Below, one piece after another: positions 4,522 through 56,637 of a stretch of 64,000 nt of DNA. The position numbers were made by a program, and so were the translations under genes. The stretch's first letter is position 1; each line of letters opens with the position of its first letter. Under the pieces are notes generated by a model. It was not told where the DNA came from. It was given only the letters and a program-made list of their open reading frames with translations, and searched no databases. The stretch comes from a virus (taxonomy: Duplodnaviria > Caudoviricetes): the IMG/VR virus record IMGVR_UViG_3300011008_000012, positions 1 through 64,000 of that record, one strand, 5' to 3'.

Positions 4522-5216
4522 GCCAGGGTTTGTTTTTCATGGTTTACCTCCTTTCTCCCCAGGGGCGGATCAACACGGTCCGCCCCAATTTCCTATGTCT
4601 AATGCGACTCAGCCATGAACGCCGATGGTTGAGCGGTCTCAAGTCCGTGTAAACGCAGAGAGGGCCTAGAAATAGCGGCAAAAAAACACCCAGTGCGATG
4701 GTTTTTGGTGTTTTCCATCGCCCTGAAACGCCGCCGCTAACGGTCCGACCTCTGCCCAGCGGAGCGGATTTGACATGGTTGAGCCGCGCCTTACAAAAAG
4801 CATCAAACGGAAGGAGGTGGTGATTGTGTATACGGATTGCACCTGTTATGACTATGTGGATTACCGGCAATGGTTGGACTGGAACGATGATTCGCTCTCC
4901 TCCTACTTCGACAAGCCTGACATTCCACCGGGCAGCGGCATCCCTCGCCGTATGCGAATAGGTGCGCCTCCCACACGAAGGTATCGCGGGTTTTCTGTGA
5001 AGACTCGCTCGGTTCCCTAGCAACGCACATATGCTTAAAACCAGATTGAATAAAATACACATTTCCCGCACCCTTTCGACTTCCCGGGGCGCGGCTTTTG
5101 ACATTCCCGCGCCTCTAAATGGAGGCGCGGCTTTAATGCAGCCAACGGCGGTCACAAGCCCGCGAGTAATGCAGAGTGGAGTTGTCAGAAATACAAAACG
5201 ATAAGGAGGAACAACA

Positions 5217-6246: not shown

Positions 6247-6653
6247 TGTGGTTGGATGTTTGGACGAGTGGTTTTTCGATGTCTGATGAAAGGATTCTTT
6301 TTATGGTCGAATTAATAATTCATACGGACGGTAATAACTATGAGACACTACGGAATTCGATTTGCGATGCGCTTGTGGGAAGCCGCCCCTTTGTAGAAAA
6401 TGAAATCATCATATCTGATGATCTTCAGGACGCAAATAAACTAAGCATTGTGCTCGGAGAATCGAATGGTTTTGGAACAACGGTTGAAGTGACAGATAGC
6501 ACCTTTCTCGCAAACCTCTTCCGAGATATACACGAAGCTGGCGGCGCAGGTGCGACGGACGAGTATTCCAAAGGATGGGATGGCGCTGTGGAAGAGTGCG
6601 AGCGAATATTCACTGCATCCACCGGCATCTCATGTTTGGATATTGAAGAATGA
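6246..6653 (+). CDS. hypothetical protein
   Basis: 135-aa ORF, coupled start; true start may be slightly downstream. Confidence 0.6.
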   Translation: MWLDVWTSGFSMSDERILFMVELIIHTDGNNYETLRNSICDALVGSRPFVENEIIISDDLQDANKLSIVLGESNGFGTTVEVTDSTFLANLFRDIHEAGGAGATDEYSKGWDGAVEECERIFTASTGISCLDIEE

Positions 6654-6707
6654 AGTAGATACGTAAAGTTCAATAACAAAACTATACTTGCTACGGAGGA
6701 TGATTCA

Positions 6708-7166
6708 ATGCAATTTCCGTGGTTATATCCAGCCCAAAATCCGTTGAGCTTCGAGGTTGGTGACAGGCGTTGCACATGCAATATGTGCGCCAACTACAAT
6801 GTTCGATACGATGAGGAGCCGTGCAAATCATGTATCCCTGGCATTTCTCGCACCGGGTTTTACGGATGCCACGCCATCGGGTTCGAGCCTGCTAAGGACG
6901 GGATTGTTGAGGAACTTGGAACACGATTCCATGAACTAAAAACGCTTCCTCGGTATTTTCACGCAAGAGACAAGAACTTTGAAATCCGTCGTGATGACCG
7001 CGGTTTTGAAACCGGAGATATCTTAGTCCTGCGCGAGTGGGACGGCACAGATTATACCGGCGCTTATACGGTTCATCGCATCACATACATCTTGCGGAAT
7101 GCAAGCGAGTACGGGTTGATGTCCGGGTTCTGTATTCTCGGGCTATGTCCTATGGAATATCTGTAA
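6708..7166 (+). CDS. DUF3850/ASCH-like domain protein with N-terminal Cys motifs
   Basis: HELKTLPRYF..KNFEIRRDDRGFETGDILVLREW. Confidence 0.75.
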   Translation: MQFPWLYPAQNPLSFEVGDRRCTCNMCANYNVRYDEEPCKSCIPGISRTGFYGCHAIGFEPAKDGIVEELGTRFHELKTLPRYFHARDKNFEIRRDDRGFETGDILVLREWDGTDYTGAYTVHRITYILRNASEYGLMSGFCILGLCPMEYL

Positions 7167-26012: not shown

Positions 26013-26351
26013 ATGATAGCTTCCGAGGAACAGTATAGAGAATTTATTAAAGGCAGACTTGTTGTTCACTGTAATAGCGAAAACGAAAAAGTTTCGTTTT
26101 TTTTGTGGGCACGAGAATGCGGCCTTGATCTTAGTCGTTCTGCTCAGACGACATTAGAGTTTCCCGACCAAACTAATATGAGCTACCCGTTTGTGCATTA
26201 TGATATACCACACAAAAGTGTTGTCGGAATGGCGAATCCGCATGAGCGTTTTGAACGTGTAGAATTCGATGATTTCTTCGGATGCGATGAAGAGAACCAG
26301 ATCGACGATAGTTTTACGGACGAGCTGTTTCAAATCATCGGAAGTGTATAA
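26013..26351 (+). CDS. hypothetical protein, distant paralog of 20419/20775
   Basis: VVHCNSENEK, acidic tail; GGAGG RBS. Confidence 0.7.
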   Translation: MIASEEQYREFIKGRLVVHCNSENEKVSFFLWARECGLDLSRSAQTTLEFPDQTNMSYPFVHYDIPHKSVVGMANPHERFERVEFDDFFGCDEENQIDDSFTDELFQIIGSV

Positions 26352-26574
26352 AACGAGTGTTTCATCGTCAAAATAACACAATATATTGATGCCAAAGAGC
26401 TTCAATGACAGAATATCTTGATGAAAAATAACGCATATAAGAAAAGCTATCACATCGACAGGTTTGCGAGGCACTATTGGTGTGATCATGCGCGGCTCAA
26501 CCAGCTCCGTGCTGACAAGAAAGCCGCGAAACGCAAGGTCCGCCGTGAGAACAAGCGGCTGACTGCTTAATATA

Positions 26575-28263: not shown

Positions 28264-28962
28264 ATGAGGATCATTGATAAGAACACGGACTTCTATGATT
28301 ATTTGCAAAATATATACCGTGACAACTCAACGACGTTTGATCGCACCGACTCTTTCGTTCTTACGAAGGATTTGATGTGCGAGTATTTCAGCGTACTAAC
28401 ACGTTGGCGTTCGGACGATCGTGATCGATATAGGTTTGTCTTGTTGCAAGTATGCAACACCTTCTGGCTGTTCCTGTTCGAGATTACAGATAAGAATGAT
28501 TACGGTATACCGACGAACTATAAGGTTGAGTTGCTGACGACATGGAAGAACTACTCTAAACAGCGTCGTCTGAACAAACTGGATGTAATTTCTTTCGGTT
28601 TCGCGGTGAGCGGGCAAATCAGCACATCCTTCTGGCGATACGACAGGGCAACCATTCTGAAAAAGGTTGATGTTCTTACTCGTGCAATCGACCAAAACGA
28701 CTTCAAGGTCATCAAAAGTATCGATCATCATACGATATTCCACGGCACCAATGTGAGAACGGAGAAGCATCTGCCGCTATTGAAGGCGTGCGGGATCGGG
28801 AATTGCATTGATCCATTGGATATCTATCTCTCGTTCGAGGAGTATTTCTCATTGGAGAGGCAGTCACAAGAGCGCATTGCCTCAGTTGGGCTTACGGATA
28901 AAGAAAAGATCGAAAACCACGGTTTTGACGCCAAGGTTTCTTTCCGGGGAAAGGGAAAATGA
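28264..28962 (+). CDS. hypothetical protein
   Basis: 232 aa, GAGG RBS, ends KIENHGFDAKVSFR. Confidence 0.75.
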   Translation: MRIIDKNTDFYDYLQNIYRDNSTTFDRTDSFVLTKDLMCEYFSVLTRWRSDDRDRYRFVLLQVCNTFWLFLFEITDKNDYGIPTNYKVELLTTWKNYSKQRRLNKLDVISFGFAVSGQISTSFWRYDRATILKKVDVLTRAIDQNDFKVIKSIDHHTIFHGTNVRTEKHLPLLKACGIGNCIDPLDIYLSFEEYFSLERQSQERIASVGLTDKEKIENHGFDAKVSFRGKGK

Positions 28963-29205
28963 TAAAAGAAGAAATATTGACCAACCATTGGTATGTCATT
29001 CACACATTGGTATCTCTTTCTGGTATCTTGTATTGGTCGCATTTGCAAATGTGCATAAAGATGATTTTTGGAGCGATCTTCCAGAGAAAATCACGTCTGA
29101 TGATAACCGAGAAAAGGGGTGGGCGCTTATCCTCACGGTTATTATCAGTAATCTACCGGTTGTCAGGTTCTTCGTATTTATTGCTTGGGTAATGGATGCG
29201 TGCGG

Positions 29206-32200
29206 ATGAAAGGCGGCTTTTATGACCTTATTCAAAAGACGTAAGTTACTTGAAAAGCAATCTCGCGGGTTACATATGATCGATCAGTGCATGGAGGTGC
29301 AGATTGAGTTGCTGGCCAGTCGTTCAGAATGGCTAGAAAAAGAAGGCCGAGACGACGAAGCTAAGGAGTGTGCGGCTGTTGTGAGGACCATCAGATACTG
29401 GCAGGATGAAGTCCGTAAAGCAATCCGTGGCGACTTCTGATCTGGATTATGATGAAAGGCGATTTTTATGAGGCTAATTGATGCGGATGCGCTCCCCACT
29501 TCCGAGGAAAAATGTGATACAGAAGATGGTATCAGAATATGGGAAAGAACAAATGGGATGAACATTGTTATTAGGCAGCTGCTTAACGCTCCCACCATCG
29601 ATGCCGTCCATGTCGTGCGGTGCGACGAGTGCTGGTTTAGACCAAAGGGTAAGACGTATTGCATCGAACTCGAACGGCACACTGGCGATGGGTTTTACTG
29701 TGCTTTCGGTCAGCGCAGAGAGGAATGAAAGGATATTTTTATGGCTATTAAGCTATGTGGGCACTGTAAATATTTCGTGCCGAATGGCGGTGTTACTTCT
29801 GATGGTGCAAGATATCAGCGTCCTTGGTTGTCCTGCGGGCTAGGAGAATGCAAGTGCCCCATCGAACCGCCGTATGGGAGATTCAAGAACGAGCAGAACG
29901 GCTGTAACAACTGGCGGGAGAGAGGTATTAAATGATTCTAACATTGATATTCATTAGCGTGGCTGTTGGTAGCGGACTTATTGCTAAGTCAGCGTCGGAA
30001 CATGGTTGGGATACCACAAGTTTAATTGCAGTAACTCTTTGTGTGCTTGCCATTATTGCCATCTTTGTGTCTGGCATCTGTATCGTTGATGAGCGGATCA
30101 ATCACGATGCAAATCTTTCAAATCTCCAGGCTAAAAGGGAAGCCCTTGTGTACCAGCTTGAAAACAATATGTTTTTAGGAGATGCAGTTGGGGAGTTTAA
30201 TGGCGAGATTGCCTCGGCAAGAGCTAAACATGAGAGTCCGTGGACAAGCTGGTTCTATGGTGACTACTATATGGAAGTCGAACCTATTGAAATGAAATGA
30301 AAGAGGCTTTTTATGAACAATCGGTTTGAGCAAATAGTTAACGAGCTTCACGCTATCGAAAAAGACCTCACAGAACGAGGGGCTTTACTGGATGATATTG
30401 AAGTTCATACCTTTGAGCAGGTTTGGTCAAGTACCGCGCTTGGGTTTGGCGGGTTAGGTGGTCAAGCTATAACAAGGGCAAACACATACGTCATCATTAC
30501 ATTCGACGAGCATACGACATGCTACGTATATTTTTCATCGGGCTTTGCGTATTCGATGCCATACAACTCAAAGGTGTTTGAAGATATTAAAAACCGAAAC
30601 ATGGCTCCTGTTCGAGAACGTGGGAAATATTTGTACGAATGAAAGAGGTTTTGATGAGCAAGTCATTAGAATATTGTTGCGTCGTTGCTTCCGACAAAAC
30701 TCGTTCATCTTACGCCGACAGGGATTGGAGTAAAGCAACAGAGTATGAAGCGGAACCAATTTTTGATCTGCAACTTGAAGGCGAGCGCGAGCTAACCGTG
30801 ACGGGGACGGACGACAGAGGGGAGCGGTTTTCGGCTCGTCTCGACTTAGTATTTGATCCATCGGCAGACTTCCAATTCTTTACCTCTGAATCTTGCAAAC
30901 ATGATGGTACTCTTCTATTCGTAGATGAGCTGTACACAAGGTGCGTTGCGAAGGTTTGCTGCCTTAAAACATGGTACAACCTGCTGGACGCTCCGAAGAC
31001 TGGCGATCATGTCAGATTTACGGTTGGGAATTTCGTTTCTTTGAATGAATACGGGAAAGAAATCGCGCCGGAAGACAAACCGTGGATGCAACAACGAACG
31101 ACGGTGTTGCTCCCATTGAAGGCCGAATACGTTAAATGAAAGAAGATTTTTATGTATATGAACAAGAATACCCGCGTTGATATACGCCAAGAATTCATAG
31201 ACGGGCAAACTAAAAGAGACATAGATGTTCACGAGGTCAAACTGACGAAGCGATTTATTTCCTGGCTATTCAGACATTACTATACAGACTGTCTGGTATT
31301 CGACTTCTATGATATGGATTCTTCATGGAGTGAATTTGCACCGGTAACATGGGACAAGCGAATATCAACATGTGTATGGCAAGATTATTTCGATGATGGC
31401 TGCTGGTGCGAGACACAGCGCGAGGTAGATGCGCTTGCCAAACGCAATGTGAATGAATTCCGTAAGGCAGGTCATTTATCTCGTCGATCCTGGATCGGTA
31501 AGTATATCTTCAATGATGGTTCGACAGGAATGCATTTATATCTTTACGGGAGAGATATTCACGAGTTTGACGTTCATGTCATTTTAAAAGAACGAAAATG
31601 AAAGTGGATTTTGATAACAACATATGAAATTCTTGATATGGGAAATCCGAGTTAACGATTACGCGCTTGCTAAAATCCAATGGGCGTTATATAAGACGGT
31701 TGGCGCAAAGCCAAAAGACCCGTGCGGTCATTCAAAGACACAAGCTGGTTATTGGTGTAGACAGCCGCTTGATCTTAAACATTGTTATGTCGAGAAAGAT
31801 CATGATGGTTGTGGATATGTAGTTAAATGCAAGTGCTGTAATAGTGTAAAAATGAGTTCAAATCATTATATCGATCCAACAGACGATAGTGCATGGTCTG
31901 GTTGGTGATATATGAAAAGGGATTTTTATGATGGATGAACACGAGTATTGTAGAAATTGCCTAAAGCAGTCCGGGTGCAAAGACTGGCGCAATGTTATAC
32001 ATGGATGTCCAGAGTACGAGCCACACATTATTTTCGGGTCATCAAGACTGACAGAGCAGGAACAAAAGATAGTGGATTATCTCGAAACGTGTTATACAGG
32101 AGCGCGTATGATGGATGACGATTTGTATATGGTGAGATTGAGCAGGGCGCTAGCAGCCTTCAAAGCAAATCCTCTCGATCCGCCAGAAAGCATCTTTACG

Positions 32201-32251
32201 GAGCGGTTCATTGAATCGTCTTGGAAACTGTAATGAAAGTGAAATTTTATG
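29206..32251 (+). repeat. nine copies of junction motif ATGAAA-N6-TTTTAT(G) separating small ORFs
   Basis: copies at 29206, 29452, 29725, 30297, 30639, 31136, 31598, 31912, 32233; ORFs start at 29222, 29468, 29741, 30313, 30654, 31152, 31624, 31928, 32249. Confidence 0.85.
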
Positions 32252-32376
32252 AAGATTGTTCCACTGAGTAAAGCAATCGACAAAGCCAAGGTTTGTAGAA
32301 GAGGTTCTTGGACTAAAACTATTTCCATGCCAGAAGTTGATGCTAGATGCAATGGACATCTATAGGAGGCTAACGT

Positions 32377-33192
32377 ATGGCGGACGTAATCAACCTGTCG
32401 GAGTTCAAAGCTCGTCAAACGATCGATGTCTCCGCATTACAGAAGAACAACAGAAAACTGCAAGCCGGTATGATCGAACCAGCGAAAGAGGTCGTGACTC
32501 CTGATATTGCACCGGAGCACGCGGCGGAACCGATTAAAAGCATGGATGATATCATGCGAATATCGAAGTATCTGATATCCAAGGGACGGTACAGGGATAA
32601 CATGCTGTTTATCGTCGGTATTAACTTCGGGCTGCGTGTCAGCGATCTGCGGCTCTTGCGGTTCACAAATCTTATCAACGACAATCTGACGTTCAAGGAC
32701 AGCTTCCCGGTTTTTGAACAGAAGACGAGAAATACAAGAACAAGGAAAAAGAACCGCTACATAACGATCAATACAGCGGTAATCGAGGCGGTCACTCTTT
32801 ATCTTGAGCATACACCGGGCATATGTCTGAGTGACTATATGTTCCGCAGTCAGTCAAGGAATAGCGGCAACAAGAACGTCCCGCTCCACAGGAGCGCAAT
32901 CGACGACATATTGAAGGGGATCGCAAGAGATCTTAACCTGAACATCCATATGTCAACGCATACGCTTCGCAAGACATTCGCGTATCACCAGATGGTGATG
33001 TCAAACAACGATCCGAGAAAGCTCCTGCTTCTGTCCAAGATATTCGGCCATTCATCGGTAGCAATTACTTTGGATTACATCGGGATCACAGGCGAAGAGA
33101 TCGAGGAGGCGTACAGGAATCTCAATCTCGGAAGTGAGACATACAACTATTTAAACTCCAATATCAAAGAAGAAGAAATGTGTGCCGTATAA
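32377..33192 (+). CDS. tyrosine recombinase/integrase family protein
   Basis: GLRVSDL, EQKT, THTLRKTF, FGHSS, TLDYIG: full catalytic set. Confidence 0.92.
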   Translation: MADVINLSEFKARQTIDVSALQKNNRKLQAGMIEPAKEVVTPDIAPEHAAEPIKSMDDIMRISKYLISKGRYRDNMLFIVGINFGLRVSDLRLLRFTNLINDNLTFKDSFPVFEQKTRNTRTRKKNRYITINTAVIEAVTLYLEHTPGICLSDYMFRSQSRNSGNKNVPLHRSAIDDILKGIARDLNLNIHMSTHTLRKTFAYHQMVMSNNDPRKLLLLSKIFGHSSVAITLDYIGITGEEIEEAYRNLNLGSETYNYLNSNIKEEEMCAV

Positions 33193-33295
33193 AGTTTTGA
33201 CGGTCATATAGGGTTTTGTTTTTATCCGACTTGTCAGGATAATAGTTTTTAAGGTATTATAAATAGTATAAATCATATATGGTGGTGATATTTCA

Positions 33296-33850
33296 ATGAT
33301 TCATGTCGGTGTAATTCTCAAAGCGCTTGCTTGGCAAGCGGTCGGAGTTGGTATGCTCACAAAGCATGGTGTTGATCACGCTCGCGCTAAGCACGCACAG
33401 ACGGTAACAAACCGGTATTATGCTCCATTGGATACGTGGTGGGCGAAATACGGGTCGTCTGTGAATGACACAAGCAAGAAGGTTCTCGACGCCTGCAAAC
33501 TTGCTTACTACGATGATTCATGGATCGATTATGTGCGCAGCGTGGTCACGCCGGATAATGAGTATATCGAAGATATGCTGAAAAACCCGAGGATGCCTCG
33601 CTATAGAAACCACGGATATCCTATGACGATGATCTACTATGCTTGCCTGGGGCAGGCGGCGAATATTACGAGGTTCGGAGATTTGCATCCTGTAAGGAGA
33701 GTCCCATCGGGGAATCTGTTCCAGCAGCAGGAAAAGCCTGTACAGGAACTTATCGTAAAGTTATTGGAAGAGCGTGGAGTTCCGGAGCTTTATTGGTACA
33801 CAGAAGATGTGGACAGCATTATGAAACGACTAGATGAGCTGTCCAGATAA
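33296..33850 (+). CDS. hypothetical protein
   Basis: 184-aa ORF after an AT-rich intergenic region. Confidence 0.65.
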   Translation: MIHVGVILKALAWQAVGVGMLTKHGVDHARAKHAQTVTNRYYAPLDTWWAKYGSSVNDTSKKVLDACKLAYYDDSWIDYVRSVVTPDNEYIEDMLKNPRMPRYRNHGYPMTMIYYACLGQAANITRFGDLHPVRRVPSGNLFQQQEKPVQELIVKLLEERGVPELYWYTEDVDSIMKRLDELSR

Positions 33851-33862
33851 CGCAAGTAAGAC

Positions 33863-33947
33863 GCCGGCATGGTGAAATTGGCAAACACGTCGGCCTCAAG
33901 TACCGATGCCGCATGGCTTGAGAGTTCGAGTCTCTCTGCCGGCACCA
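33863..33947 (+). tRNA. tRNA-Leu(CAA)
   Basis: loop ctcaagt, variable arm, gccggca/tgccggc + ACCA. Confidence 0.9.
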
Positions 33948-34203
33948 TCCCATGGCGGCGGGGAGAATAGTCGCCCAGGAAGGTGAGAGGACAAATAAAC
34001 AAAAAGCCCCTTAGCTCACCACCACGCTCCCACCAGTTGGAAGCAGGTCGGCACGGAGACCTTAAATTCTGTGATTCCAGTGAAATTCTGAGCGTGTCCA
34101 CCATCTGGGCGCACCGTGACAGCCGGGCAGTAGAAATATCATCTGAAAACAATATGATGGAACCACGGCCGACGCCGTGTTTTTTTTGTGATGAGGTAAA
34201 ACA

Positions 34204-34575
34204 ATGGGATATTATTCTACATATGCGCTTACTTGGGAATACAAGGGAACGGACACGACACAGGCAGAGATTTCCGAAAGAATCATCAATGCCTTTGCCG
34301 ATCTTCCGTACTGGTCAGCCGGCGGCTTTGATGTTGATAGCGATGACAGCATTTATATCTCAGAAGCCAAGTGGTACGACTACAGTGAAGATATGTACGA
34401 TCTCTCCGTACAGTTCCCCGATGTGGTGTTCCACCTGTGGGGTGATGGAGAAAGTGCAGACGACCTATGGGAAGAACACTGGCAGAACGGTAAAACACAG
34501 CATTGTGCGGCGGAGATTCCGCCATATGATCCAATGAAGATGGTCGATTACAAACGGAGGTGCCGATGTCAGTAA
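34204..34575 (+). CDS. hypothetical protein
   Basis: GAGG RBS; MGYYS.., AKWYD, LWGDGE. Confidence 0.75.
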   Translation: MGYYSTYALTWEYKGTDTTQAEISERIINAFADLPYWSAGGFDVDSDDSIYISEAKWYDYSEDMYDLSVQFPDVVFHLWGDGESADDLWEEHWQNGKTQHCAAEIPPYDPMKMVDYKRRCRCQ

Positions 34576-34609
34576 TGGTGTCGACCAATATATCTATAGG
34601 GAGGACGCT

Positions 34610-35311
34610 ATGTCCAGAATCTTTGTGACCGGTGATACGCATGGAGATTACGACTGGGGAAAAATCAATACGGCTAGATGGCCTGAACAGAAGAAACTCA
34701 CGAAGGACGATTACCTGATCATTGCTGGCGACTGGGGAGGTATCTGGAGTATGCCTGTCGATGAAGGCGAAAGCGCATACTGTATTGAGGTCTACAACAG
34801 CAGGAATTTCACGACGCTGTTTGTCGATGGAAACCATGACCGTCATGATTACTACGCCACACTCCCGGTCGAGGAATGGAACGGCGGCAAAATACATAGG
34901 GTGTCCGATTCCATCTTCCATCTGATGCGCGGTCAGGTTTTCAATATCGACGGACGCACCATCTTTACAATGGGAGGCGCAGACTCCGTTGATAAACTGT
35001 GGCGTAAACCTGGCGTAAGCTGGTGGCCGGAAGAAATGCCAAACATCGCCGAGTACACAGAGGCGATGGAGAATCTGGAGAGAGCCGGTTTCAATGTTGA
35101 TTACGTCATTACACATTGCTGCGGGACACAGCTCCTCCATCGAATGTATACGCACCACTCGCAGCCAGATGCGCTCACAAATTTCTTCTGGGAGCTGGAG
35201 AAGGATCATAATCTTACGTTCAAGTCGTGGTTTTTCGGGCACCATCATCAGGATGCGATATTCGATGATGGGAAATACAGATGCCTCTATCAGGACATCG
35301 TGGAGATATAA
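34610..35311 (+). CDS. calcineurin-like metallophosphoesterase
   Basis: GDTHG, GDWG, GNHD, THC, GHHH. Confidence 0.9.
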   Translation: MSRIFVTGDTHGDYDWGKINTARWPEQKKLTKDDYLIIAGDWGGIWSMPVDEGESAYCIEVYNSRNFTTLFVDGNHDRHDYYATLPVEEWNGGKIHRVSDSIFHLMRGQVFNIDGRTIFTMGGADSVDKLWRKPGVSWWPEEMPNIAEYTEAMENLERAGFNVDYVITHCCGTQLLHRMYTHHSQPDALTNFFWELEKDHNLTFKSWFFGHHHQDAIFDDGKYRCLYQDIVEI

Positions 35312-35416
35312 CGGTACACCGAAGTCATTCTGTTTTCGCTCATCATGTGCATCCTTTTCCTGATCTATGAGACGATGGAGCTTTTCCCCGGAAACGACTG
35401 AAAATAGGAGAGTAAA

Positions 35417-35821
35417 ATGAGATTTAACGTCATCATCGCCGGATCACGCGGCTTCAATGATTATGATCTTCTTTGTATAAAATGTGATAAGTTCTTCGCA
35501 AGAAAAACGCCGACGATGATCCTCTGCGGAGAGGCAAGGGGAGCAGACGCCCTTGGACGCAGATATGCGGAAGAGCGCGGCATCGAAGTCGGCTCGTTCC
35601 CGGCTGAATGGAGTAAATACGGTAAATCTGCCGGTATGCTCCGCAATCGAGCAATGCTGGAACACGCGGATGCGCTCGTCGCGTTTTGGGACGAGCGCTC
35701 CGCAGGTACCAAACATATGATAGAAATCGCAAAAGGGAAAGGAATCCCTGTTCGCGTTGTAAAATATGCGAGTGTGAGTTTAGAACAGAAGGACGAGAAT
35801 GGGACAAGTATCGATCAGTAA
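35417..35821 (+). CDS. SLOG family (DUF2493/YspA-like) protein
   Basis: IIAGSRGF, GEARGAD, AGMLRNRAM, SAGTKHMI. Confidence 0.85.
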   Translation: MRFNVIIAGSRGFNDYDLLCIKCDKFFARKTPTMILCGEARGADALGRRYAEERGIEVGSFPAEWSKYGKSAGMLRNRAMLEHADALVAFWDERSAGTKHMIEIAKGKGIPVRVVKYASVSLEQKDENGTSIDQ

Positions 35822-36404
35822 CGGAAATTCAAAAATGGGTTCTATCCCGAGTGTGTCACTCCCATCCATCGTAACATGCAGGGAGTGTGCGTGTCAGAAG
35901 AAATGCTATGCGCATAAACTGGAGCGGCTTCGCCCCTCTGTTCTGAACGCATATCAAAACAATCTGAGGATTTTGCGGGAAGATCCAAAAACATATTGGA
36001 GAGAAATCGAAGCGGCGATCATGATGAGCCGCTTCTTTCGTTTCCATGTATCCGGCGACATACCGGATGAAGAGTACTTCAAGCACATGGTAGAGATCGC
36101 CAAAAGGAATGAACACTGTCAGATCCTGTGCTTCACAAAGAAGTACGAGATCGTAAACAGATGGCTCGGTCAAACAAACGGGTATTTGCCAGACAATTTA
36201 CATATCGTTTTCAGCGGTTGGGTTGGCCTTGAGATGGTCAATCCATTTTTCTTGCCGGAAGCGCATGTCCGATACAAGGATGGGACGACTACGGCGAGAG
36301 ACGACGCGATGGAATGTCCGGGAAATTGTACGGACTGTGCCATAACAGACTGTGGATGTTGGGTCTTAGGACTTGGCGAGCAGGTGGTTTTCCACGAACA
36401 TTAA
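35799..36404 (+). CDS. GP88-like Cys-rich phage protein
   Basis: GNSKMG, TCRECACQKKCYA, FRFHVSGD, FTK. Confidence 0.7.
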   Translation: MGQVSISNGNSKMGSIPSVSLPSIVTCRECACQKKCYAHKLERLRPSVLNAYQNNLRILREDPKTYWREIEAAIMMSRFFRFHVSGDIPDEEYFKHMVEIAKRNEHCQILCFTKKYEIVNRWLGQTNGYLPDNLHIVFSGWVGLEMVNPFFLPEAHVRYKDGTTTARDDAMECPGNCTDCAITDCGCWVLGLGEQVVFHEH

Positions 36405-42972: not shown

Positions 42973-43650
42973 ATGGCAGAAACGCTGAACATCTATCAGA
43001 AATTGGCAAAGGTCCGCAAGGCCGTCGAGGTCGTGCAGAAGAATGCCAGCGGTTATGGGTACAAATACGTCACAGATGACGAGTTACTTGCTCGCATCAC
43101 GGGCGTTATGGATAAGCATGGGCTCTCGCTTATCCCAAGTATCGTGCCGAACACATTCACAGTAGAGCCTTATACATATACGAAGATCAAAAAGGGCGAA
43201 GAAGAGATCGTCAATGAGATCCTCGTCAACGCAGACATGGAATTTGTCTGGATCAATAACGACGCGCCGAATGAGGTGATTCGTGTGCCGTGGGCGCTTA
43301 CCGGTCAGCAGAGCGATGCGTCGCAGAGCTTTGGTTCCGGTCTGACGTATGCCTATCGCTACTTCCTTCTGAAATACTTCGGGGTCGCCACTCCGAACGA
43401 TGATCCTGACAACTGGCGAAACAAGCAGCGCGAGGCGGAAGCCGCGGAAGATCGTGCGCTTGCAGAGCAGATCGTCAATATCATCGATAAAGAATTCAAG
43501 GATTATATCTCGAACGGTGGTTCCACCGAAGAGATCCGCGACTTTGCAAGTAAGTATGTGAAGGGCGGAAATTACTTCAACATCAAAGAGTCTGCGGTAG
43601 CGGCAAAGATGCTTGAAGATTTCAAGAATACTTTTAAGAAGGAGGCGTGA
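42973..43650 (+). CDS. ERF family ssDNA-annealing recombinase
   Basis: GYGYKY, GSGLTYAYRYFL..FGVAT..DDPD. Confidence 0.85.
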   Translation: MAETLNIYQKLAKVRKAVEVVQKNASGYGYKYVTDDELLARITGVMDKHGLSLIPSIVPNTFTVEPYTYTKIKKGEEEIVNEILVNADMEFVWINNDAPNEVIRVPWALTGQQSDASQSFGSGLTYAYRYFLLKYFGVATPNDDPDNWRNKQREAEAAEDRALAEQIVNIIDKEFKDYISNGGSTEEIRDFASKYVKGGNYFNIKESAVAAKMLEDFKNTFKKEA

Positions 43651-44048: not shown

Positions 44049-44870
44049 ATGACGGCTATCGATTATAAGCCGCTCATTCAGGACATGGTATGGAGCTACT
44101 CAAGGCTGGAAGCGTTTGAGGATTGCCCATATAGATGGTTTCTGCATTATCTTCTGAACTTCCAAGACGAGGATAAGTTCTACGCGAGCTTCGGTTCGTT
44201 CATGCACCATTTGCTCGAACAGTTTTATACCGGCAAAAAAGATCGGTCTGAGCTTGTCATGGAGTTTATCGCGGATTTTCAGGAGAAGGTCGTTGGGAAA
44301 AGACCGTCAGAAAAAATCCTGTCCAAATACATTCAGAACGGAGTCAATTACCTACAGGCATTTGACCCGCTTCCGTTCAATGTGATCGATATTGAGAAAA
44401 GGGTCCGGTTTTCCATCCAAAGAGATGGGGAACCGGATATACAGATGATCGGTATTATTGATTATCTTGGAGAGAAGGACGACGAATTGTATATCGTCGA
44501 TCATAAATCCAGGAAATTGAGTCCGAGGAGCAATCGGGCAAAGCCGACACTGAAGGACAAAGAACTAGATAAGATGCTCAGGCAGCTCTATGTCTATTCG
44601 ATCGCCGTTGAACAGAATTACGGGAAATTGCCGAATTACTTATGCTTCAACTGCTTCCGGTCAAATGAGCTTATCGTTGAGCCATTCAAGCAGGAAGCAT
44701 ACGAGGAGGCGAAACAATGGGTAATTGACACGGTAAAAAAGATCGAGAACACAGCGGAGTTCCCTCCGAAGCAGGATCTATTCTCATGCTTTTGGATATG
44801 CGGCGTCAATCGTCATTGCAAATATGACATTGAAAGTATGAATGAGAGGAGGAATGTCCGTGGACTATGA
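44049..44870 (+). CDS. PD-(D/E)XK (RecB/Cas4-like) nuclease
   Basis: WSYSRL..CP, GIID..IVDHKS, QLYVY, C-terminal Cys cluster. Confidence 0.85.
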   Translation: MTAIDYKPLIQDMVWSYSRLEAFEDCPYRWFLHYLLNFQDEDKFYASFGSFMHHLLEQFYTGKKDRSELVMEFIADFQEKVVGKRPSEKILSKYIQNGVNYLQAFDPLPFNVIDIEKRVRFSIQRDGEPDIQMIGIIDYLGEKDDELYIVDHKSRKLSPRSNRAKPTLKDKELDKMLRQLYVYSIAVEQNYGKLPNYLCFNCFRSNELIVEPFKQEAYEEAKQWVIDTVKKIENTAEFPPKQDLFSCFWICGVNRHCKYDIESMNERRNVRGL

Positions 44871-48276: not shown

Positions 48277-48624
48277 TTAGGTCAGATGTCCATCCAAAAC
48301 TAGGTCAGCCGGTCTCGGTAGGGCTTCCAGTTCCCATAGGCTTTGCTCAAAGGCATGCGCCTCCTCAGAGTGATCTCGGCTCAGTTCAAGGCGTTCTTCC
48401 TCGGTCATAGCTTCGTATTCCTCCAAGCGGTCGTTGTCCATCCGGATAGCGGTAACGAGATCTGCCGGCCAGCCGGCTTCATTGTAGTAGAACCAAGGAT
48501 TATCGTAGATATCTACTCCGTGGTGGACCCAGTACCATACGTCGGCGCGTTCAGATTTGGCGGCGTTCATTTCCGTAAGATATTTCTGCACTTCGCGGCG
48601 CAGCTCAGAATCAAGCTTTGGCAT
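48277..48624 (-). CDS. IS21 passenger hypothetical protein
   Basis: 115 aa, overlaps the istB end, GGAGG RBS. Confidence 0.65.
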   Translation of the reverse strand: MPKLDSELRREVQKYLTEMNAAKSERADVWYWVHHGVDIYDNPWFYYNEAGWPADLVTAIRMDNDRLEEYEAMTEEERLELSRDHSEEAHAFEQSLWELEALPRPADLVLDGHLT

Positions 48625-49399
48625 CGTTCTTACCCTCCATCAGTCGTTCAAAAGAAGCTCCATTGGCACGGAGGGTCTCGCGGAAACGATATGAGTCGCC
48701 CTCCATATCTACCAGGATGGCTTTGTAGGTGAGTCTGTCCACAATGGCGCTGGTAATGGCAGCGTCGCCAAATATCTCGTCCCAGCGCTCAAAGGTCAGG
48801 TTGGATGTAATAATCGTGGATTTCTGGGTGGCGCGCAGAGAGAGGTTTGTAAACAGGAGGTCTGCGCCCTCTCGGTCAAAGGAGACATAGCCCATCTCAT
48901 CGGCTATGACCAAATCATACTTTTCAAACCGTTTCTCAAACGCCTTGAGCGTTTTTGCATTCACATTTTCCTTCAGTTCTGTTACCAAATATGGAACAGT
49001 GGTGAACAGAACGCGGAAGCCTTGCTCGCAAGCTCGAATACCGAGGCCAATGGCCACATGTGTTTTTCCAGTGCCGGGATTGCCGGTGAGAATGAGATTT
49101 TGGCCGTTGCGGATGAAGTCCAATCCAGCGAGCTCCGGCAGCCGCTTGCGCATATCCCTTGGCAAGCATTCCAATTCAAGGTCTTCCAGATATTTTTTGT
49201 ACGGAAAGTGGGCACGTCGGATTCGGGACTGTTTCATCCGTTCCTCGGCTTCCTGCAGTTCCTGAGATAATATTCGGTACAGAAAATCCTCGTAGTCCGC
49301 AGCTTCCTGCTCCATGGTCTCAAAGCTCTTCGCGATACCGTTCAGCCGCAGGATCTTGCACAGTTCCTTTATGTCGGCGTTCGTCTTGGCGCTCGTCAT
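48611..49399 (-). CDS. istB: IS21 helper ATPase
   Basis: GNPGTGKTH, ADEMGY, TSNL, AIVDRL. Confidence 0.95.
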   Translation of the reverse strand: MTSAKTNADIKELCKILRLNGIAKSFETMEQEAADYEDFLYRILSQELQEAEERMKQSRIRRAHFPYKKYLEDLELECLPRDMRKRLPELAGLDFIRNGQNLILTGNPGTGKTHVAIGLGIRACEQGFRVLFTTVPYLVTELKENVNAKTLKAFEKRFEKYDLVIADEMGYVSFDREGADLLFTNLSLRATQKSTIITSNLTFERWDEIFGDAAITSAIVDRLTYKAILVDMEGDSYRFRETLRANGASFERLMEGKNDAKA

Positions 49400-50967
49400 A
49401 CAGCGACACTCCCTTCCATCTGCAGTTGTCTGAGCAGATCATATTGAGAGAGCGTGCTTTTTGCTTTTTCACTGAGATGGTCAGAACCCGGCTGCTGAGG
49501 CACCTTACGCAGTGTGTTCTCGCATACGACGCGGATCTTTTGGGCGCTCATATCCTTCGGCGACAGACGCTCCATACGTTTAAGCGCCTGCTGTACAGTA
49601 TCCGCGCCTAGCTCGTATATGACCTCCAGAACTTCGAGGAAGGTACGAGCATCCTGTGTGTAATAAGTGTCGTAAATCTGCTTTACAACAGAGTCGGACT
49701 GCAGCAGTGCCGTGCTGCCGGGCAGAGCGCCGGGCTTGCGTTTCAGGGTTCGGAGATAGTGATAGATGTCAATCGTCCAGTCATGAGGGCGGAAACTCCG
49801 GCTGTGAGTCGCCACGATCCGGTTTTCGTAGTAAACAACGAGCTTGCTCGTGTAAAGACGTACCTGCACACGCTTTCCCACAAGCGTGTCCGGCACAGAG
49901 TAATGATTACCGGCAACCATGACTGTAGAGTACTTGTCCACGCTGTTTTCCGTCCGGATACAGCACTCGAACCTCGGCATGGCCGGCAGTAGACAGCGCT
50001 GTTCTTCTTCAAAGAGTTCTGCCGGAACCTGGCCGTTGGATGCCGTTTCCCGGTTCAGCCTGACACATACGCCAAACAGATACCGGTTGGCAGACTCCAG
50101 AGATTCAAAAATGTCACAGCCGGGTGCACTGAAAGCTTTGTGGCGAACCACATCCACACTGCGCTCCACATGCCCCTTCTCGTTCCCGCGGCGTACATTG
50201 CAGAACCGAAACTGGAAGCCATAATACAGAGACAACTCCAGCAGCGCGTTCGTGGGTTCCTTTTCTGTCGGGCCAACAAATTTCCGCACGGCGACCTTCA
50301 TGTTGTCATAGACCATGGTGTGAAATGCTCCATGACAGAAGGAAAAGAAGGTCGTATGGGATTCCTGGAATGCTGCCGTATCCTGTGAACAGTAGAGAAC
50401 GGCAAATCGCTCCCCGCTATATGCTGCTGTGAATACGGCCATCTGGTATCTCTTGAAGCCGCTGTTCGCTATATCCAGCTTGACCTCGCCCCAGTCGAAC
50501 TCACAGGTTTCACCGGGCTGATATTCCTGCCGGATATACGCCTCTTCATGACGGGCTTCCAGTCTGTTCACCAGCCGTTTTACCGTGGAATAGCTTACAG
50601 AAAAGCCTTCCCGAACCAGGTATTCGTGGATGTCCTTCTTCCTCATCGCCTGTTTCCGCATCCCGGACACTCGCTTCACAGCGTTGAGCTGTAGGCACTG
50701 CTCCACGGCGGCTTCCATCTCCGGCGTTACGATGACCGGGGTGCGGTTACTGGCGTCGTATTTCGGTTCTTCTACGAAGGTCTGGAGAATCTCTTCTGGA
50801 TCTGCATCCGGATCCCGAGTCAGCAATTCTGCCCGCTGTGCATCGTACTCCTTCACATACTTGTTCACGGTGTCCTTGCTGATGTGCATCTTCGATGCAA
50901 TCTGCCGGTTGCTCACCCCGGCCAGGTGGCTCATGATGATTTGCTGCTTTCTGGTCAATGTGATCAC
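49396..50967 (-). CDS. istA: IS21 transposase
   Basis: N-terminal HTH, FDWGE, YDNMK, EKGHVE, YSVP. Confidence 0.95.
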   Translation of the reverse strand: MITLTRKQQIIMSHLAGVSNRQIASKMHISKDTVNKYVKEYDAQRAELLTRDPDADPEEILQTFVEEPKYDASNRTPVIVTPEMEAAVEQCLQLNAVKRVSGMRKQAMRKKDIHEYLVREGFSVSYSTVKRLVNRLEARHEEAYIRQEYQPGETCEFDWGEVKLDIANSGFKRYQMAVFTAAYSGERFAVLYCSQDTAAFQESHTTFFSFCHGAFHTMVYDNMKVAVRKFVGPTEKEPTNALLELSLYYGFQFRFCNVRRGNEKGHVERSVDVVRHKAFSAPGCDIFESLESANRYLFGVCVRLNRETASNGQVPAELFEEEQRCLLPAMPRFECCIRTENSVDKYSTVMVAGNHYSVPDTLVGKRVQVRLYTSKLVVYYENRIVATHSRSFRPHDWTIDIYHYLRTLKRKPGALPGSTALLQSDSVVKQIYDTYYTQDARTFLEVLEVIYELGADTVQQALKRMERLSPKDMSAQKIRVVCENTLRKVPQQPGSDHLSEKAKSTLSQYDLLRQLQMEGSVAV

Positions 50968-56598: not shown

Positions 56599-56637
56599 TT
56601 TTGCTTATAAAACTTGGTTTTCATAGAGGAGGTGTTT

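Follow-up and report, generated by a model that had tools for sequence, protein, structure and literature searches.

How do the long runs of small genes without annotated function in large phages, many of which are thought to counter host defences, turn over as fast as they do? This turnover is poorly understood, and the question is raised here by one block of such genes in IMGVR_UViG_3300011008_000012, a phage record of 119,578 bp in total (48% G+C), the first 64 kb of which are referred to as the window. Between positions 29206 and 32251 a short motif, hereafter the joint, recurs at successive gene junctions, and a gene for a tyrosine recombinase follows shortly afterwards. Our results tie the turnover of this block to the joint, a 19-nt element that would ensure the translation of a newly arrived gene. 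The block is a gene-shuffling array in which the joints mark the borders of swapped genes. We consider it fairly probable that the joints are seams made of a stop codon, a Shine-Dalgarno (SD) sequence and a start codon, and that single genes are exchanged by short-homology recombination between them; the neighbouring recombinase is probably not involved in this swapping.

Placement and make-up of the joints

The motif has the form ATGAAAG-N5-TTTTTATG; seven exact copies and two near ones lie on the same strand between 29206 and 32251. The pattern ATGAAA-N6-TTTTAT has nine exact matches in the window and none in any of 100 dinucleotide-preserving shuffles. Seven of these matches lie on the + strand (29206, 29452, 29725, 30297, 31136, 31912 and 32233) and, with near copies at 30639 (lacking one T) and 31598 (TTTTGAT, not followed immediately by an ATG), they make up the nine junction copies described in an earlier note on this DNA, which was prepared without database searches. 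Outside the array the whole genome contains only three further copies, at 6286 (+; 6286-6305), 93534 (-) and 102825 (-), all at gene starts, and 9 of the 12 genome copies fall in one 3-kb stretch of tightly packed genes.

All nine array copies lie at gene junctions, with the same orientation and the same register. As previously noticed, the TGA at bases 2-4 of the motif is often the stop of the preceding gene (up to six of nine sites) and the motif-terminal ATG is usually the start of the following one (eight of nine; the exception is 31598, where the next start is at 31624). The true upstream stop lies 12 nt before the motif at 29452 and 4 nt before it at 31912, and at 32233 the motif is overlapped by a TAA stop. 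The first joint (29206-29224, variable part GGCGGC) runs from TGA through GAAAGG and a U-tract to the ATG of a 72-aa ORF; here the role of the TGA as upstream stop hinges on an uncertain gene call. Two candidate ORFs overlap at 28959-29209, of which one has a good ribosome site and stops at 29192, while a more protein-like, two-helix membrane frame has a weak TTG start at 28988 and ends in the TGA of joint 1; a frameshift or sequencing error is possible.

The motif reads as a TGA stop, followed by an extended SD sequence (GAAAGG), a U-rich spacer and an ATG. The constant GAAAG(G) is complementary to CCUUUC at the 3' end of 16S rRNA, and the predicted SD:anti-SD pairing averages -8.0 kcal/mol at array starts against -8.4 kcal/mol at other genes of at least 80 codons. 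The usual start context elsewhere in the genome is an AAGGAGG-type site, unlike the joint, and a T-run just upstream is found at 10 of the 177 called gene starts genome-wide. Conservation of the A before the TGA and of the U-tract exceeds what an SD sequence needs. Promoter-like sites are not enriched in the region (22 against an expected 19.5), and none of the promoter- or terminator-like sites recurs from joint to joint.

Several other readings of the motif were considered and set aside. The TGA is in frame with the next ATG, and ten stops in a row are TGA; stop-codon recoding or a polyprotein was rejected, with TGA accounting for 44% of stops genome-wide and no suppressor tRNA being encoded. 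At eight of nine joints the first ATG of the motif opens a mini-ORF of 8-14 codons (M-K-x-x-F-Y...), which runs across the real start out of frame, its ATG combining with the upstream stop into ATGA. A conserved leader peptide is not favoured, as the peptide only translates conserved bases and the mini-ORF is broken in relatives by indels and by an early stop; the mini-ORF probably arises as a side effect of base conservation.

The earlier note had also described the joint as an imperfect inverted repeat. A loose symmetry is indeed present, but the predicted hairpins (-0.5 to -5.3 kcal/mol, z -2.1 to +0.7) do not surpass those of shuffled sequences. In addition, the recurrent TTTTGAT variants disrupt pairing of the arms with no compensating change, and an Rfam search of the region returned tRNA only. 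An RNA hairpin or palindrome was rejected for these reasons, as were RNase III-type processing sites on the same grounds. In a more distant relative (L003:2703-3659, - strand), three joints have perfectly complementary 6-bp arms (ATGAAA ... TTTCAT), and their middle parts are poor SD sequences. Two exact copies in reverse orientation, at 26348-26365 and 56607-56624, were found where they had been reported; this is more than chance predicts, and neither is at a minus-strand gene start. One sits just past the stop of a + strand gene and the other between a stop and the SD sequence of the next + strand gene.

These features bear on whether the joints could be regulator sites, either a stoperator-like operator in the DNA for an MrpR-like protein or an RNA site at which a translational repressor or a nuclease would shut down the block. 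The phage encodes two MrpR_N_CB proteins (genes at 2714 and 41818), and MrpR is a recombinase-fold repressor that binds a repeated element (PMC10516654). Conservation past the SD requirement, the loose two-fold symmetry with its perfect-arm versions in L003 and the two reverse copies would fit such a role. However, the MrpR sites that are known occupy some ten promoter regions and not each junction of one 3-kb operon (PMC10516654). Moreover, the array copies all keep one orientation and one ATG register, the TTTTGAT variants lose the symmetry uncompensated, the stems are at the level of shuffles, and few copies occur in the relatives searched. A regulatory role for the joints is improbable in our judgement.

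Exchange of genes between the joints

Comparison of related phages for rearrangements at the motif, as proposed in the earlier note, was possible with five contigs that carry the block: L078 (Logan), L154 (JGI) and the metagenome contigs L184, L179 and L191, the last three of which were retrieved by searching with the pattern of one joint. Phage records in GenBank gave no match at nucleotide level, and a strict-pattern scan of IMG/VR gave single copies only, mostly incidental. The variable middles of the joints recur in broadly the same order across the six genomes, namely GGCGAT, GGATAT, GAAGAT and GAGGTT (in reverse order in the window), GAGAAT, GTGGAT and AGGGAT. At least four variants are shared between the window and L154, where 0.7 would be expected (simulated P about 8e-4), and six between L078 and L154, where 0.9 would be expected. 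The GGCGGC variant of joint 1 is the first joint in L191 too.

The slots between the joints, in turn, vary in length and ORF content, and the ORFs mostly differ among the six genomes. Joint 2 (29452-29470, GGCGAT) is an identical 18-mer in L078, L154, L184 and L179, and joint 3 (29725-29743, GGATAT) is identical over 19-23 nt in L078, L154, L184, L179 and L191, where it is neighboured by different ORFs; both joints are thus identical in the window, L078 and L154. The slot that they enclose measures 252 nt in three genomes, 273 in the window, 626 in L184 and 966 in L191, and the 86-aa ORF that fills it in the window is unrelated to the 78-aa ORF found there in L078, L154 and L179.

Set into this variable content are single shared genes with 85-97% nucleotide identity, whose edges lie in joints. 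The clearest case is a 161-aa gene with its true start at 30654: window positions 30639-31162 match L078 7232-7757 at 94% nucleotide identity between unrelated flanks, the gene's homology extending from the first base of one joint to the ATG of the next. Joint 5 (30639-30656, GAGGTT, one T fewer) is the left edge of this block and joint 6 (31136-31154, GAAGAT) its right edge. Similarly, window positions 31912-32250, with a 101-aa gene, match L154 at 92-97% nucleotide identity from joint 8 (31912-31930, AGGGAT) to joint 9 (32233-32251, GTGAAA). A 64-aa gene is 96-97% identical with L184, and a 122-aa gene is 96% identical with L191, where it occupies another slot; the homology of the latter stops inside the ATGAAA of joint 4 (30297-30315, GAGGCT). 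Joint 7 (31598-31615, GTGGAT) is decayed, without a following ATG, and its variant is also present in L154. In a further pair of contigs, L001 and L079, homology likewise resumes at a joint. The proteins of the backbone are only 50% (left flank), 53% (right flank), 65% (recombinase) and 77% (Pnkp-ligase) identical, which, next to the high identity of the shared genes, points to recent exchange.

For blocks shared at ≥80% identity, 16 of 26 ends lie no more than 10 nt from a recognised joint, while joints cover 2-5% of the DNA, and four further ends lie at degenerate joints recognised by eye. The alignments also show crossover points, both within ATGAAA and at TTTTTAT. Synteny breakpoints therefore coincide with the motif.

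The earlier note had named, as the case against gene shuffling, a motif that is only a stereotyped translational-coupling signal. The motif does appear to be such a signal, yet the breakpoints fall on it. A version of this alternative needs to be considered nonetheless, in which the motif serves for translation (re)initiation only and breakpoints coincide with it because it fills the gaps between genes and only intact genes survive. This is consistent with the fixed stop/start register, the restriction to a single strand and the ordinary strength of SD pairing. Solitary copies also occur at unrelated gene starts, including in the minus-strand half of the genome, and gene-sized homology with edges at gene borders is seen where the motif is absent (L150, and the left side in L149). 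Against it, joints of 18-23 nt are identical, variable middle included, beside unrelated ORFs on both sides in phages whose flanking proteins are about 50% identical, and random joining would create new junction sequences. In addition, the order of the variants is broadly kept across the six genomes, and other genes are translated well without the A before the TGA or the U-tract. A role as signal alone appears unlikely, but it is an alternative that has to be taken seriously.

If the joints are instead seams for short-homology exchange, as we favour, they would act at two levels. In the mRNA, each joint would provide a stop, a ribosome site, a U-rich spacer and an ATG, so that ribosomes may terminate and restart a few bases on. 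In the DNA, single genes would be replaced, inserted or lost at the joints, the constant ends of the joint offering short homology that could extend to the full 18-23 nt when both partners share a variant. The partners may be co-infecting relatives or prophages. Short-homology recombination is the most likely route of exchange, for which an Erf-like single-stranded DNA annealing protein (42973-43650, +; phrog_155, E = 2.6e-32) and its exonuclease partner (44049-44870, +; phrog_69, E = 2.8e-24) are plausible catalysts; a dedicated enzyme that recognises the joint is less likely. Rad52-like phage recombinases have been reported to drive relaxed homologous recombination (PMC3945230). The incoming gene would automatically acquire a stop, a ribosome site and an ATG, and because of this gain joint-mediated events would be viable much more often than random joining. 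The same viability argument has been made for the promoter-early stem-loops (PeSLs) of T4-type phages, which are a precedent for regulatory motifs that serve as shuffling linkers (PMC2839356).

A number of points weigh against exchange guided by the joints. Several breakpoints lie inside ORFs or at junctions free of the motif, and two array genes have homologues in the more distant phages L149 and L150 that are missing the motif at one or both ends. The intergenic space in the block is almost entirely joint, and because the joint fills the gaps, homology-guided crossover is indistinguishable from selection after random joining. The constant segments, at 7-8 nt, are very short for homologous recombination, and translational coupling across the joints is suggested by sequence only, the recombination enzyme being likewise inferred. 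We would put forward only tentatively the stronger proposal that the joint is a purpose-built 19-nt translational linker, pooled among diverged gut phages and recombined by the annealing protein at its 7-8-nt segments with no need for a site-specific recombinase. If correct, it would make the array an integron-like platform for accessory and anti-defence genes.

The genes carried by the array are in keeping with the earlier description of small, unrelated ORFs. Eleven ORFs of 38-161 aa, all on the + strand and mutually unrelated, occupy 29222-32365, and the uncertain ORF ending at 29209 precedes them. Ten lie at 29222-29440, 29468-29728, 29741-29935, 29932-30300, 30313-30642, 30654-31139, 31152-31601, 31624-31908, 31928-32233 and 32249-32365. 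Pfam and PHROG searches of these ten placed none in a family, and comparison of the array ORFs with one another gave no significant similarity, which led us to reject tandem duplication as the origin of the array. Four of the ORFs were searched against metagenomes and all have homologues there, so these four are real genes; two array proteins have no close relatives in IMG/VR. The 101-aa gene (31928-32233) is modular: its Cys-rich first 32 residues are 88% shared with a 74-aa protein, residues 40-97 match many other small proteins, and the L154 copy (L154:8001-8225) has an internal 143-nt deletion that shifts the frame. The L154 array also contains a match to the anti-CRISPR family AcrIC5 and a YAcAr gene (4743-4937 and 6576-6929), and there are hints that arrays of this kind carry anti-defence cargo. 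The joint offers a simple sequence handle for finding such accessory-gene platforms in metagenomes.

The neighbouring recombinase, the phage and its host

The last joint ends at 32251 and is followed by one 38-codon ORF and then by the tyrosine recombinase gene (32377-33192, +; 271 aa), so that the array does end shortly before a recombinase, and a catalytically intact one, as had been claimed. Alignment to a XerC-like structure shows the catalytic residues R87, H195-x-x-R198, H225 and Y234 to be present. Only the catalytic domain was detected (PF00589, E = 1.4e-15, residues 56-235), preceded by about 55 residues. The best model matches are generic Xer-like ones, far below their own cutoffs, and the integron-integrase model TIGR02249 gives 17 bits against a cutoff of 265.

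This arrangement had suggested an integron-like array for gene capture or shuffling, in which the neighbouring recombinase would cut and join at the joints, taken as 6-bp arms around a 6-bp spacer, and so capture and excise cassettes. The shuffling is borne out by the comparisons above; the proposed mechanism is not. In its favour are the complete catalytic residues, the precision of the breakpoints and the location of the gene, 127 bp past the last joint in the window and adjoining the small-ORF array in L154. However, 77 IMG/VR contigs encode the recombinase (56-75% identity), no more than one to three joints lie within 10 kb of the gene in these contigs, and a joint array adjoins it in almost none of them. 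Five related whole genomes of about 120 kb agree with this, with one to three joint copies in four of them and about eight distinct sites in that of L003. The position of the gene varies as well: it is 3' of the block and co-directional with the cassettes in the window, at the 5' start of the array in L154 and directly abutting the Pnkp-ligase gene in L001 and L002, and it is not on the 9.2-kb L078 contig, which has about a dozen joints and extends to the conserved right-flank gene. The joints are 19 nt long and codon-phased, compared with the 57-141-nt hairpins of attC sites, and the low integrase-model score points the same way. Fixed AT-rich 6-bp arms are far shorter than the arms that tyrosine recombinases typically bind. 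Catalysis by the neighbouring recombinase is therefore very improbable. Since relatives keep the gene with few joints, and its position and neighbours vary, the link between array and recombinase looks accidental, and this cautions that a tyrosine recombinase near such an array need not belong to it.

In many relatives the contig breaks off some 1.75 kb upstream of the recombinase gene. A variable hotspot was considered, but what accounts for these ends is a perfect 57-bp tandem repeat (6.2 copies; L020:7995-8350, also in L008 and others) about 1.7 kb upstream of the gene, and not the array. The repeat, which could be an iteron, an origin or a partition site, is absent from the window and from L001. 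In the window, unlike in L001 and L002, about 3.2 kb (33193-36400) separate the recombinase from the Pnkp/RNA-ligase gene, and this insert holds tRNA-Leu(CAA), a phosphoesterase gene, a YAcAr (SLOG) gene and a GP88-like gene. On its left the block is flanked by a conserved 232-aa gene (28264-28962, +), with about 50% amino-acid identity to L179 and 49% to L001.

The phage, at about 120 kb, bears SP-beta-type marker genes; it encodes a Pnkp/RNA-ligase fusion, the two MrpR-type proteins and the annealing protein with its exonuclease, and the record has 13 tRNA genes, 11 of them inside the window. An insertion-sequence-like pair of genes lies on the opposite strand within the replication module (48611-50967, -), consisting of a 523-aa ORF with HTH, integrase-core and Mu-transposase C-terminal domains and an adjoining 262-aa ORF. 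One array gene has homologues on two contigs of metagenome-assembled genomes, binned as Acutalibacteraceae and Lawsonibacter, from which the hosts are probably gut Oscillospirales (Clostridia).

Comparison with known systems

The array resembles an integron in that copies of one site stand between promoterless, unrelated small genes, and in two of the six contigs a gene for a tyrosine recombinase lies close to the array. It nevertheless lacks the defining features of one, namely an IntI-type integrase, attC sites and the placement of the integrase. IntI has an integron-specific extra domain, whereas the recombinase here falls below the TIGR02249 cutoff. The attC sites are imperfect palindromes of 57-141 nt that fold single-stranded, in contrast to joints of 18-19 nt that are tied to their slots and codon-phased. 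The integron integrase is divergently oriented at a fixed end beside attI and the cassette promoter; here the recombinase is co-directional and variably placed.

Many short, transcription-oriented sites in short intergenic gaps are also found among the stoperators of Cluster A mycobacteriophages and the SPBRE/MrpR operators of SP-beta, and the likeness to SP-beta extends to the recombinase-fold, MrpR-like proteins that the phage encodes. Stoperators and SPBRE sites, to which a repressor binds, are distributed across the genome or located at promoters, whereas the joints are clustered in one block in exact register with the start codons and do not lie in the promoter regions of several operons, as SPBRE sites do (PMC10516654).

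A closer likeness in placement is provided by the start-associated sequences (SAS) of Cluster K mycobacteriophages (Pope et al. 2011, PMC3203893). Both are short, asymmetric repeats with an SD core, located a few bases before starts in one orientation and before non-structural genes of different families, with the upstream stop sometimes within the repeat; both are conserved beyond rRNA pairing, and the function of neither is known. The joints belong to the functional class as defined for SAS (PMC3203893), but their sequence is unrelated to the 13-bp Cluster K consensus (GGG...CCC), so that the likeness is one of function and placement only. The SAS further differ in their actinobacterial host, in being spread across half the genome where the joints are packed into 3 kb, and in that a role as recombination seams is not reported for them.

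In their evolutionary behaviour the joints are closest to the PeSLs (Arbiol et al. 2010, PMC2839356; Comeau et al. 2014, PMC4122927). In both cases, unrelated ORFans in a hyperplastic region have a short and conserved signal for expression at their borders, the breakpoints of insertions, deletions and replacements fall inside the signal, and a newcomer obtains a working expression context. The PeSLs are about 100 bp and transcriptional, with a sigma-70-type early promoter and a terminator stem-loop, both of which the joints lack; the joints are 19 nt and appear to be translational (stop, SD sequence and start) within one apparent operon. Host and phage group differ as well, and mini-circles have been demonstrated for PeSLs. 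If the joints are recombination linkers, the PeSL idea, which concerns the transcription signals of T4-type phages, would also apply to signals for translation, and to phages of gut Firmicutes. By analogy, then, the placement and make-up of the joints match the SAS of Cluster K, and their evolutionary behaviour matches the PeSLs of T4-type phages.

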